In this document: piece by piece, positions 5,562-31,119 of the stretch | Layout of the letters: each line of letters opens with the position of its first letter | Position numbering within the stretch: position 1 is the first letter of the stretch | Assembly: GCA_021782495.1 (NCBI GenBank) | Contig: JAJXUV010000001.1 | Location: forward strand, 182,637 to 246,636 | DNA: 64,000 nucleotides | Source: Pseudomonadota bacterium | Lineage (GTDB): Bacteria; Pseudomonadota; Gammaproteobacteria; UBA1113 | Direction of reading: 5' to 3' | Made by a program: the position numbers and the translations under genes | The notes under the pieces: model-generated | The model's input: the letters and a program-made list of their open reading frames with translations, nothing else | What the model was told of the DNA's origin: nothing | Databases searched by the model: none

Positions 5562-5591
5562 CTGTCATCCCTACTTTCGCAGGGATGACAT
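5562..5591. repeat. Small palindromic repeat PR-1, copy 1 (ctgtcatccctactttcgcagggatgacag-like)
   Basis: Perfect 12-13 bp inverted arms tgtcatcccta...agggatgaca. Same family as the elements at 26158-26226 and 31089-31119. Confidence 0.7.
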
Positions 5592-5617
5592 CGTAGTTTT
5601 TTCCAATACAGCGCAAA

Positions 5618-5652
5618 AAAAAGCCCCACATTGACGTGGGGCTTTGGGGCAC
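5618..5652 (-). terminator. Rho-independent terminator of groESL
   Basis: The minus strand reads GCCCCACGTCAATGTGGGGC followed by TTTTTTTT, about 25 bp after the groEL stop. Confidence 0.7.
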
Positions 5653-5674
5653 AAAAACAGGTAGGAACGCTGAC

Positions 5675-7330
5675 TTACATCATGCCGCCCATACCGCCCA
5701 TGCCACCCATGCCACCCATGCCGCCCATGTCGCCAGCACCAGCAGGTTCTTTTTCTTTCAACTCAGTGACGATGCATTCGGTGGTTAAAACCATGCCCGC
5801 AACAGAAGCTGCATTTTGCAAAGCACTGCGCGTCACTTTGGTAGGATCGATAATACCTGCTTCTACCATGTCGCAATGCACACCTGTGGCAGCATTAAAA
5901 CCAGTATTGCCTTTGGCATTCATGATTTTATCCAAAATAATGGCTGGCTCATAACCCGCATTCGCCACGATTTGGCGCATAGGTGAAGTCATGGCACATT
6001 TGGCAATGTGAATACCAATGTTTTGATCGTCATCGGCGCCTTTTAAATTGGACAAAGCTTGCATGGCACGAATCAAAGCAACACCGCCGCCAGGAACAAT
6101 GCCTTCTTCCACGGCCGCACGGGTTGCATGCAAAGCATCTTCCACACGCGCTTTCTTTTCTTTCATTTCAACTTCCGTTGCAGCGCCCACTTTGATCACG
6201 GCCACACCACCAGACAATTTAGCGACGCGTTCTTGCAATTTTTCACGATCGTAATCAGAAGAAGTATCCTCTATTTGCGCGCGAATTTGATCGACCCTTG
6301 CTTTAATATCGACTGGATTGCCCGAACCCGAAACAATCGTGGTTTCATCTTTGGTGATCAGCACTTTCTTCGCGGTACCCAAATCCGTTAAGCTCACGGA
6401 TTCTAAAGTACGGCCTGTTTCTTCAGAAATCACCGTACCTGCAGTCAAAATCGCAATATCTTGCAACATGGCTTTACGACGATCGCCAAAACCAGGCGCC
6501 TTCACCGCAGCCACTTTCAAAATACCTCGAATATTATTCACCACTAAAGTCGCCAAAGCTTCGCCTTCTACATCTTCTGCAATCAACAACAAGGCACGAC
6601 CTGCTTTAGCCACCGCTTCCAACGTTGGCAACATATCACGAATATTACTGATTTTTTTATCGGTCATCAGAATATAAGGATTTTCTAATTCCACACTCAT
6701 GTTTTGTTGGTTGGTGACAAAGTAAGGTGAAATGTAACCACGATCAAATTGCATCCCTTCGACCACGGACAATTCGATTTGGAAGGATTGACCTTCTTCG
6801 ACGGTGATAACACCTTCTTTACCCACTTTTTCCATCGCATCTGCAATCGCTTCACCGATTTCAGGATCGCCATTCGCAGACACCGTTCCCACATTTTTGA
6901 TTTGTTCTTTGGAAGTGCAAGCTTGGGACAATTTTTTTAATTCTTCCACCGCTTTATTCACACACAAATCAATACCGCGTTTGATTTCCATCGCATTGCG
7001 GCCTGCGTGCACGCCTTTCAAACCTTCGTTGATCATATTGGCAGCCAACACAGTTGCCGTGGTAGTTCCATCGCCAGCGATGTCGGAGGTTTGCGAAGCC
7101 ACTTCTTTAACCATTTGCGCACCCATGTTTTCGAACGAATCTTTTAATTCGATTTCTTTCGCCACGGACACACCATCTTTGGTGACAGTAGGCGCGCCAA
7201 ATTTTTTATCTAAAGCAACCACACAACCCGCAGGGCCCAGCGTTACTTTAACCGCATCGGCTAAAATGTTCACACCACGTGCAAGCGCTGCACGGGCTAC
7301 ATCACCAAACTGAATTTCTTTTGCAGTCAT
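5675..7330 (-). CDS. groEL: Chaperonin GroEL (Hsp60) with C-terminal GGM repeat tail
   Basis: Full-length 551 aa with canonical GroEL motifs ([27 protein letters not shown]) and a (GGM)5 tail. Confidence 0.97.
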
Positions 7331-29155: not shown

Positions 29156-30086
29156 AGTCCGTGCACCAGGCAGCGTGATGTTGTTTGGTGAACACGCTGT
29201 TTTGGCTCAAAAACCTGCGATGGTCACTGCCATTGCACAAACTCTACAAATTACTCTTTCAAAACGTGAAGATGCAGTGATTGATATTCAATCGAATACT
29301 TTCGAGCCTTATCAAACAACTGTAAAAGATTTAAGGGTTCTTAAACCCTATACTTTTATTTTAGCCTGTTTGAAACAGCACCCCCCAAATTTAACGCAAG
29401 GATTAAACATTCACATCGATTCTGAGATCGATCCCACTGTAGGATTTGGAAGTTCTGCGGCAATCACCGTAGCAATGCTCAAAGCACTGCAATCGCTGTT
29501 TGATTTAGACATCGACATTTGGCAAGAATCTTGCACAGTCATCCAGCAAATTCAAGGGTATGGTTCTGGTATGGATGCCTTAGCCAGTTTGCACGGCGGA
29601 ACCCTTTATTACGATCCTAAAACGCAGGAATCTTTCAGTTTAACGCCGCGCACCGATTTGCATTTATTGTATTGCGGTTATAAAACACCCACGGGCACGG
29701 TATTGCAGCAAGTGCGGACTACCTTTGCAAACACACCTGCTTTACTGAAAAATATTTATCAGCGCATTGGCAAAATCGTTCAAAAAGCCAAAACTGCTTG
29801 GGAACAAAATGATACCTCCTTATTGGCACAGTGTATGTGCAAGCATCAAGAGTTGCAAAAAAATTTGCACGTCAGCGATGCACACTCTGAAAAACTGTGT
29901 CAGTGGTTAGAAGAAAGTGTGAGAGTAGCGGCCGTAAAAATTTCCGGTTCAGGCTTAGGCGATTGTCTGTTGGCTTTAGGGGGTGATTGGTCTCGGGTGG
30001 CAGAAACAGAGATCCGCGCCTTACACCCTAGTGCAAGGTATTTCCCATTAATAACCAATCCGACAGGAGCAAGCCTTGTTGAATAA
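29136..30086 (+). CDS. Phosphomevalonate kinase (GHMP kinase family)
   Basis: GHMP motif VGFGSSAAITVA. Second GHMP kinase in the operon. Confidence 0.78.
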   Translation: MGCDWVKVRAPGSVMLFGEHAVLAQKPAMVTAIAQTLQITLSKREDAVIDIQSNTFEPYQTTVKDLRVLKPYTFILACLKQHPPNLTQGLNIHIDSEIDPTVGFGSSAAITVAMLKALQSLFDLDIDIWQESCTVIQQIQGYGSGMDALASLHGGTLYYDPKTQESFSLTPRTDLHLLYCGYKTPTGTVLQQVRTTFANTPALLKNIYQRIGKIVQKAKTAWEQNDTSLLAQCMCKHQELQKNLHVSDAHSEKLCQWLEESVRVAAVKISGSGLGDCLLALGGDWSRVAETEIRALHPSARYFPLITNPTGASLVE

Positions 30087-31068
30087 AAGTGACATCATCT
30101 CAAAAATATTGTCTGAGAAATCGCGCACCCCTCATTCGGAAAAAGGCAGTGTTTACGCGCCAGCCAATATTGCTTTGTGTAAATATTGGGGGAAAAGAAA
30201 TGAAATCCTAAATCTACCGATGACTTCCAGCTTGTCTATCAGTTTGCAAGAAAAAGGGTCTCACTTTGCTTTCGAAGTGGTCGATACAGAAGATGTTTTG
30301 CATCTAAATGAAAAAATAATTTCTGCAGAAGATCCTTTTTATCAAAATTTATTTTCTTTCATCGGTTTGTTCAGAAAATCTCATTCTCCTCGTTTACACA
30401 TTCGCATTCATAGCACCATTCCTATTGCCGCTGGATTGGCTTCCTCAGCCAGCGGCTTCGCTTCTGTGGTCAAAGGCTTAGATGCTTTATACGGATGGCA
30501 CTTGGAACCATGGGAATTGTCCATTTTGGCGCGCTTAGGCAGTGGCAGTGCGTGTCGTTCTATATGGCCCGGATTCGTAGAATGGCAAAAAGGCATTCGT
30601 GAGGATGGCATGGACAGTTTCGGTGTTCCCTTAGATCTCACTTGGCCGGCATTGCGCATTGGATTATTGTTGGTGTCTTGCGAGAAAAAAAATATTTCTT
30701 CGCGCAAAGCCATGGCGCTCACTCAGGAAAATTCTCCTTTGTATCGAGCATGGCCGAAACAAGTGACACAGGATTTAGATGCAATAAAAATAGCTTTAGC
30801 CAACCAAGATTTTAGGGATTTAGGTGAAGCGAGCGAGCGCAATGCCCTGATCATGCATAAAACCATGATGGCAGCCACACCATCCATTGATTACAGCACA
30901 CCACAAACCCACGAATATGTGCAGCAAATTTGGCAATTACGGCAAGAAGGTTTATCAATTTACTTTACGCAAGATGCTGGGCCCAATTTGAAGCTATTGT
31001 TTTTGGAAAATACGGAGGCTGAGGTAGTGCAGGCGTTTCCGCAGATAGAGATTATTCAGCCTTTTTAA
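30076..31068 (+). CDS. Diphosphomevalonate decarboxylase
   Basis: NIALCKYWGKR and AAGLASSASGFAS motifs typical of MVD. Confidence 0.85.
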   Translation: MLNKSDIISKILSEKSRTPHSEKGSVYAPANIALCKYWGKRNEILNLPMTSSLSISLQEKGSHFAFEVVDTEDVLHLNEKIISAEDPFYQNLFSFIGLFRKSHSPRLHIRIHSTIPIAAGLASSASGFASVVKGLDALYGWHLEPWELSILARLGSGSACRSIWPGFVEWQKGIREDGMDSFGVPLDLTWPALRIGLLLVSCEKKNISSRKAMALTQENSPLYRAWPKQVTQDLDAIKIALANQDFRDLGEASERNALIMHKTMMAATPSIDYSTPQTHEYVQQIWQLRQEGLSIYFTQDAGPNLKLLFLENTEAEVVQAFPQIEIIQPF

Positions 31069-31088
31069 GAAGCATATTCTACAAAGAG

Positions 31089-31119
31089 CCTGTCATTCCT
31101 GCGAAAGCAGGAATGACAG
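31089..31119. repeat. Small palindromic repeat PR-1, copy 4 (cctgtcattcctgcgaaagcaggaatgacag)
   Basis: Perfect 13-bp arms around a GAAA loop, 20 bp after the mvaD stop. May double as a terminator hairpin. Confidence 0.7.

Follow-up and report, generated by a model that had tools for sequence, protein, structure and literature searches.

Members of the CGTC-1 family of repetitive extragenic palindromic (REP) sequences are small hairpins with a terminal CGTC tag (often TGTC, with CCTC accepted), 8-bp stems that nearly always begin with A-T, 4-nt loops and a CCA tail (Di Nocera et al., 2013; PMC3733652). Inverted dimers are frequent, occasional intragenic copies add 20–30 residues to a protein, and no transposase is associated with the family. 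The CGTC-tagged families as a whole show no association with RAYT genes, and the Rickettsia repeats RPE-6 and RPE-4 have been equated with CGTC-1 and CGTC-4, respectively (PMC3733652). In Neisseria, the dRS3 repeat has been extended to a 28-nt sequence called NTS, CGTCATTCCCGCGMAVGCGGGAATCYRG (Chenal et al., 2025; PMC11893778). NTS flanks ssnA, whose 94-aa GIY-YIG product requires the single-stranded form for binding to the hairpin and cleaves just upstream of it. The C after the stem is the most critical base for SsnA binding, and the catalytic residues mutated in the N. meningitidis protein are Y6, Y17 and E64. Ssn homologues with Ssn-related motifs (SRMs) of their own are widespread, and 81% of the genomes with >200 SRMs encode Ssn (PMC11893778). 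Here we describe four hairpin units of this type in a 64,000-nt stretch of DNA (the window) from an uncultured gammaproteobacterium of the lineage UBA1113 (assembly GCA_021782495.1, contig JAJXUV010000001.1, positions 182,637–246,636), two of which form an inverted dimer inserted into the 3' end of idi, the gene for type 1 isopentenyl diphosphate (IPP) isomerase.

The window was read together with 18.5 kb of flanking sequence added from a 413,781-bp metagenomic contig (ENA ERZ27236847, k141_921961), the middle of which is 100% identical to it, giving 82.5 kb in total. The initial annotation had described four related hairpin units at three sites, and this was borne out: a 24-mer consensus with up to three mismatches matched the window four times, at the units that we call U1–U4, and had no match in 100 dinucleotide-preserving shuffles. 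Two additional 12-mer matches, at 14051 and 52599, lack a partner arm, and their number does not exceed chance (expected 2.8 ± 1.6). The unit has a TGTC tag, an 8-bp stem beginning with AT, a 4-nt loop (mostly GAAR) and a CCAG tail. The tag is TGTC in three units and TGTT in U3, the stems are ATCCCTGC/GCAGGGAT or ATTCCTGC/GCAGGAAT with no or one mismatch, and the loops are GAAG, GAAA or TTTC. The CCAG tail is present on both U2 and U3, and a second tag, GACA, stands in its place on U1 and U4. The C directly after the stem and the upstream GTC occur together in U2; in U3 the C tail is combined with GTT, and in U1 and U4 the stem is followed by G. Of the four units, only U2 thus has tag, stem and C tail all free of defects, and it is also the match to the 28-mer (with one R position) used for scanning. 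Two details of the earlier description need correction. TGACA at both ends, proposed as part of the consensus, is true of the two single copies only, and the only perfect palindrome is U4, at 31.09 kb, whose stem reaches 13 bp with the flanking C/G included and whose third stem pair is the T-A variant.

The pair at 26.16 kb, previously taken to be a tandem dimer, is in fact inverted. U2 and U3 converge across a 10-nt spacer, with their tags pointing outward and their CCAG tails inward, and the two 33-nt arms are 85% complementary and fold as a single hairpin of ∼30 bp. DNA folding z-scores ranged from −4.3 to −10.8 for the units, dimer included, with −9.3 kcal/mol for the U1 hairpin (z −4.3), −15.2 kcal/mol for U4 (z −9.0) and −26.5 to −26.9 kcal/mol for the dimer (z −8.9 to −10.8). 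The elements are present in all other assemblies of the host organism, which are 99.7–100% identical. The core pattern also revealed a decayed unit, CTGTTTTCGCAGAGATAACA, between gshB and rpe, a short way beyond the window edge (positions 4283–4306 of the flanking stretch L128, equivalent to ∼69.29 kb of the window); it closely resembles U3 (26198–26225) and has lost its left arm. Looser half-site searches of the 82.5 kb gave no further decayed copies beyond the known sites.

The anatomy of U1–U4 places them in family 1 of the CGTC/TGTC-tagged REP superfamily, as kin of dRS3/NTS, RPE-6 and the Ssn-related motifs, in line with the original description of the elements as REP-like. The features in common with CGTC-1 REPs are the (C/T)GTC tag, the 8-bp AT stem, the 4-nt loop, the CCA tail of the two dimer units, the inverted dimer, the intragenic location and the lack of a dedicated transposase nearby. 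Unlike those repeats, two of the three window sites are symmetric double-tagged palindromes without a tail, the copy number appears low, and the host seems to be a Legionellales-like gammaproteobacterium, whereas the published families are mostly alphaproteobacterial. With the Neisseria system the units share their length of 28 nt and their build as an oriented hairpin, and the tag, the loop and, in the dimer, the tail are also alike. U2 differs from NTS at five positions, four of which amount to two compensated stem pairs, and U4 departs from the NTS core at a single compensated pair. Where the published SRM pattern demands C/G, however, the stem has a T-A pair, and there are no large clusters (NIMEs). 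The idi copy resembles RPE-6 and RPE-4 as a short palindromic repeat lying in frame inside a coding gene of an intracellular bacterium and adding ∼20 residues; the RPE adds an internal peptide segment, whereas the insertion in the window sits at the extreme C-terminus and replaces the stop.

Two other groups of repeats resemble the units in part. The QMITE2 elements of Coxiella burnetii (Wachter et al., 2018; PMC5896051) are also small palindromic repeats of a Legionellales genome, found at gene 3' ends with slight overlaps of reading-frame ends. They are, however, GTAG-tagged and 150–190 bp long, with terminal inverted repeats and 7–11-nt direct repeats, and they host IS1111, whereas the elements in the window are 28 or 66 nt long, carry TGTC and have none of these features. 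The suggested resemblance to the insertion sequence (IS) targets of Coxiella-type genomes therefore fails, since the IS1111 target is a GTAG REP within QMITE2 (PMC5896051) and TGTC/CGTC units belong to another superfamily (PMC3733652). The REPINs of Pseudomonas and E. coli are likewise inverted REP doublets that form one long hairpin, with singles read as decayed doublets, but their tag is GTAG and their enzyme, RAYT, is an HUH Y1 transposase, whereas the enzyme associated with units of the window type is a GIY-YIG protein. Readings of the units as attC sites or Correia elements were dropped, the core motifs being absent.

The protein encoded by idi ends in ...TIIHDYV-VIPAKTGIQRKKPGSLPSQG. U3, the spacer and U2 together encode its 20 C-terminal residues as well as the stop codon, which is supplied by the U2 tag (TCA at 26162–26164, TGA on the − strand). 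The initial annotation was thus right that the 3' end of idi is repeat-encoded, but its figure of ∼15 codons falls short of the actual 20 residues. It had also proposed a comparison of the C-terminus with orthologues. Among 7,935 Idi homologues, the best non-identical ones are 170–183 aa long and cover 84–92% of the query, and the nearest orthologues have 178–180 aa. The repeat tail was present in none of 17 aligned orthologues, which end about 15 residues earlier. The closest syntenic relative (L125), whose Idi is 75% identical and which keeps both the idi-dotN-dotO and the mvaD-permease neighbourhoods, has no unit downstream of idi, downstream of mvaD or anywhere in its 20.5 kb. Removal of 26160–26225 (66 nt, 22 codons) from the window gives a 179-aa Idi ending in ...HDYVDKIW at an in-frame TAA. 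Because the orthologues lack the tail and L125 lacks the unit, and because the 66-nt deletion restores an Idi of orthologue length, these comparisons identify the dimer as a clean 66-nt insertion into idi that gave the protein a repeat-encoded tail. The insertion point is in frame, four codons ahead of the original stop, and an allele without the dimer is predicted to read ...GACTATGTGGATAAGATATGGTAA.

The Idi tail (IPAKTGIQ…GSLPSQG) has the same origin as peptides of open reading frames (ORFs) that run through units elsewhere. Stop-to-stop ORFs through units (L179, L180, L265, L146 and others) contain the recurring peptides …IPAFAGMT…, …SSLRKQGSS… and …CHPCEGRDP…, which cluster as false protein families. 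Gene annotation should flag the Idi tail, along with peptides like it (IPAxxG...), as repeat-encoded.

Table 1. Hairpin units and associated features of the window (positions in nt of the 64,000-nt stretch).
Feature	Position	Strand	Description
U1	5563–5590	none	TGTC-ATCCCTAC-TTTC-GCAGGGAT-GACA; single double-tagged hairpin; one stem mismatch; CCAG tail on neither strand
Presumed ancestral idi stop (TAA)	26144–26146	−	intact; in frame after removal of the 66-nt dimer
U2+U3 dimer	26160–26225	none	66 nt; convergent; gene-less; resembles a miniature inverted-repeat transposable element
U2	26160–26187	+	TGTC-ATCCCTGC-GAAG-GCAGGGAT-CCAG; canonical; left half of dimer
idi	26162–26749	−	type 1 IPP isomerase, NUDIX fold (PF00293), 195 aa
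Spacer	26188–26197	none	10 nt, GTTTTTTTCG, between the two CCAG tails; slot of the ssn gene in full cassettes elsewhere
U3	26198–26225	−	TGTT-ATCCCTGC-GAAA-ACAGGGAT-CCAG (read on − strand); tag mutated, GTC to GTT; one stem mismatch
U4	31091–31118	none	TGTC-ATTCCTGC-GAAA-GCAGGAAT-GACA; single double-tagged perfect palindrome

The initial annotation allowed that the likeness among the copies might be coincidental if there were no others. Further copies were found: the pattern GTCATYCCTGCNNNNGCAGGRAT matched at least 120 stretches in species-representative genomes, the window's own 28-mer matched at least 120 metagenome stretches, and viral contigs contributed 45 stretches. Hosts among the genome matches listed include Planctomycetota, Bacteroidota, Ignavibacteria, Nitrospirota, Chloroflexota, Rickettsiales, several gammaproteobacteria and candidate phyla. 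In other organisms the loops are mostly GAAG or GAAA and the tails mostly CCAG or CCAT, and a C directly follows the stem in 141 of 150 units. The variable stem pair was T-A in 185 of 220 units from other organisms, C-G in 24 and a mismatch or wobble in 11. Independence of the two stem sides would predict only about 4 C-G pairs, and the counts therefore reveal covariation across the stem. Where units are paired in the genome loci listed, 15 pairs are convergent and none is divergent; the spacers of convergent pairs measure 13–97 nt, or 321 and 394 nt with a gene inside.

That gene encodes a GIY-YIG (Ssn-like) protein of ∼100 aa. It abuts a unit in 10 of the 240 loci listed (120 genome and 120 metagenome), and six of these genes are bracketed by convergent units, an arrangement equivalent to NTS-ssn-NTS. 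Within the genome set, the gene abuts a unit in L100 (Pirellulales), L110 (Ignavibacteria) and L046, with a truncated remnant in L006; in L100 and L110, two convergent units bracket the ∼100-aa ORF at 5–60 bp. Within the metagenome set, it lies 0–13 bp from a unit in seven stretches and is bracketed in four of them. The ORFs match Pfam GIY-YIG (E 4e-17 and 9e-11) and form one family with 45–78% identity, and Tyr7, Tyr18 and Glu65 of the L100 protein correspond in position to the catalytic residues Y6, Y17 and E64 of N. meningitidis SsnA. A PDB sequence search gave no solved relative of the Ssn-like ORF. We clustered all ORFs within 300 bp of units at 285 loci, and the GIY-YIG family was the only specific recurrent neighbour; a larger cluster consisted of generic ABC ATPases, others were repeat-encoded pseudo-ORFs, and no transposase family recurred. 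Taken together, these gene neighbourhoods establish an association of the window-type unit with Ssn-like genes in other organisms. Since the 24–28-nt sequence is found in many phyla and beside nuclease genes, it is not a local invention of this genome.

Other arrangements of the units were seen in the same searches. In Flavobacteriaceae bacterium GF1 (AP035880.1; L046, 6552–8000), five tandem periods of ∼300 bp each hold two kinds of hairpin unit, with loops of 4 nt and 5 nt, respectively. The Ssn-like gene stands at the end of this array, which is similar to a Neisseria NIME cluster. Units are also numerous on some contigs assigned to viruses (L255, L272, L283, L290), with at least eight on one 45-kb contig and four within 700 bp on another; L283 is the 44.9-kb IMG/VR contig 3300036760_001528. 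Exact unit matches also occur in metagenome-assembled genomes labelled Nanoarchaeota, Peregrinibacteria, Berkelbacteria, Kuenenbacteria and Gracilibacteria (L024, L048, L052, L061, L103), indicating either very wide horizontal spread or binning contamination.

We consider it probable that the window holds CGTC-1-type units of which the dimer is a cassette without its gene and the singles are collapsed dimers, all of them acquired after the lineage split from its nearest sampled relative. Elsewhere, the cassette consists of two convergent units, tags outward, around a ∼100-aa gene of the GIY-YIG Ssn family, the characterised members of which bind the hairpin in single-stranded DNA and cut a few bases upstream of the tag. 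The dimer at 26160–26225 would be such a unit-ssn-unit cassette minus the gene. Lacking the gene, it should be unable to move on its own, and since it entered idi as one 66-nt piece, it would behave like a miniature non-autonomous derivative. U1 and U4 may have arisen from dimers that collapsed by deletion between the directly repeated stem-loop-stem cores, because such a deletion in a convergent dimer leaves TGTC-stem-loop-stem-GACA, which is the form of both singles. The insertion four codons ahead of the idi stop was presumably tolerated because it is in frame and carries its own stop codon. Three of the four units show mutated tags, stem mismatches or missing tails, which suggests that the window copies are a small, ageing set that is mostly decaying rather than part of an expanding family. 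The derivation of the dimer from a cassette, the collapse to singles, any action of an Ssn nuclease in the host genome and the mechanism of spread are inferences.

Several observations weigh against this account. Motif, tblastn and hidden Markov model searches found no Ssn-like or GIY-YIG gene in the 82.5 kb, and the partner enzyme may therefore be absent. The published SRM pattern, HGTCWYN(0-2)YYVSBRHN(0-5)WNVSBRGN(0-2)RNCYNB, matched none of the four units on either strand, because it demands C/G where the units have a T-A pair; its one match in the window is unrelated. U1 and U4, which occupy two of the three sites, are double-tagged and lack the post-stem C that is critical for SsnA binding, and this double-tagged form accounts for only 6 of 150 units elsewhere. 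The dimer insertion shows no sign of a target-site duplication, and copy density is low (three sites and one decayed copy in 82.5 kb). A bolder proposal is that the 66-nt dimer is a non-autonomous miniature Ssn cassette that moves as a unit via single-stranded DNA and inserts without target duplication, with the double-tagged palindromes as collapsed footprints or empty sites. We regard this as rather unlikely. If it were true, Ssn cassettes would be a new transposon-like or homing class driven by a single-strand-specific GIY-YIG nuclease, and the clean in-frame insertion into idi would be a rare datable jump.

A different view of the same units is that they are live Ssn substrates, with Ssn encoded elsewhere in the genome, and that single-strand cutting modulates recombination or DNA uptake in the regions of groEL, the Dot/Icm genes and the mevalonate operon, the role that NTS has in Neisseria meningitidis. 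The fully canonical unit at 26160, which matches the 28-mer flanking Ssn-like genes in metagenomes, is what such a role would call for; Ssn is encoded by most genomes with large SRM families, as cited above, and Neisseria repeats do cluster around particular genes (PMC11893778). Set against this, three of the four units lack the combination of intact tag, perfect stem and C tail, the density is far below that of expanded families, the 82.5 kb hold no ssn gene and L125 does without units at the matching sites. A current role of this kind is possible, but on balance we doubt it. The hairpins might instead be targets of a site-specific recombinase or an IS of the IS110/IS1111 family or a phage integrase, given that dRS3 has been reported as a phage recombinase target in Neisseria (PMC11893778), that IS110-family elements target REPs in Pseudomonas and that IS1111 targets a REP in Coxiella. 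The Coxiella precedent concerns the GTAG superfamily, though, and no transposase family recurs beside the units at the 285 loci. The 82.5 kb contain no IS, transposase, RAYT or integrase gene, and target use would explain the occupation of sites but not the origin or spread of the repeat; we therefore find this explanation improbable.

Mobilisation of classical REP/REPIN elements by RAYT is scarcely credible here. The inverted dimer with its one long hairpin is REPIN-like and the location at gene 3' ends is that of REPs, but none of the four units has a GTAG tag, CGTC-tagged families are not RAYT-associated (PMC3733652), there is no Y1 transposase among the Pfam-annotated genes of the window, and the recurrent neighbour elsewhere is the GIY-YIG gene. 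The positions of the units raise one more explanation, that they are locally evolved terminators or mRNA-stabilising hairpins for groEL, idi and mvaD. As first noted, every copy lies at a gene 3' end (groEL, idi, mvaD), each site being between same-direction genes and just past the upstream one. U1 lies 84 nt downstream of the groEL stop (5675, − strand) and farther out than the terminator of groEL itself at 5620–5645; U4 follows the mvaD stop (31068) by 22 nt and precedes the permease start (31199) by 80 nt; and the dimer lies over the end of idi, 80 nt ahead of the next gene. The hairpins are stable, and a simple scan gives terminator-like sites at all three places. Yet at none of the three sites is the T-rich tail on the strand of the upstream gene; it always lies on the opposite one. 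For groEL there is a strong terminator elsewhere, and the relative L125 lacks the units. A terminator role for the upstream genes, for which the initial annotation had proposed an assay, is thus unlikely, and local evolution to this end is very improbable; a side effect of the hairpins on mRNA 3' ends is possible. The reading of the units as CGTC-1-type repeats left by a gene-less cassette and its collapsed relatives remains the one that we prefer.

The window itself has a GC content of 42% and carries groES, groEL, genes for ankyrin-repeat proteins and housekeeping genes; its mevalonate operon, which encodes HMG-CoA reductase, two GHMP kinases and MVD, is divergent to idi. Dot/Icm type IVB secretion genes occupy two blocks, 2233–4751 and 22419–26079. 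One block holds DotH/IcmK (PF12293) and a TrbI-like gene; the other, with genes for 1006 aa and 208 aa, is directly downstream of idi, beside the mevalonate operon, and the order idi-208aa-1006aa is also found in L125. From the Dot/Icm genes we take the host to be a Legionellales-like organism. A 687-aa ORF at 12920–14983 (− strand) combines a pyridoxal phosphate-dependent decarboxylase of the Orn/DAP/Arg type (LysA-like) with two diaminopimelate (DAP) epimerase (DapF) domains, and looks like a fused LysA-DapF protein. A HigB-type toxin gene and its helix-turn-helix partner (54132–54849) lie beside a gene for a 935-aa AAA_21 ATPase (55232–58039), and a PemK toxin gene is found just outside the window (L128, 8744–9085). 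Pfam identified only housekeeping genes among the remaining window ORFs, with no transposase, RAYT or integrase, and Rfam gave no match in the window at the gathering threshold.

In summary, the four units represent an already-described and recently characterised repeat class in a new host lineage, and one pair of them is neatly inserted into idi. They add an uncultured, Legionellales-like bacterium with Dot/Icm genes to the hosts of dRS3/NTS-type hairpin repeats. The published SRM pattern misses a common T-A stem variant, and this variant spans many phyla and still flanks Ssn-like genes. None of these findings overturns current understanding, and their interest is modest. The clean insertion into idi, 66 nt long, in frame and with the original stop kept four codons downstream, lends support to the view of the convergent dimer as an element that moves in a single piece.

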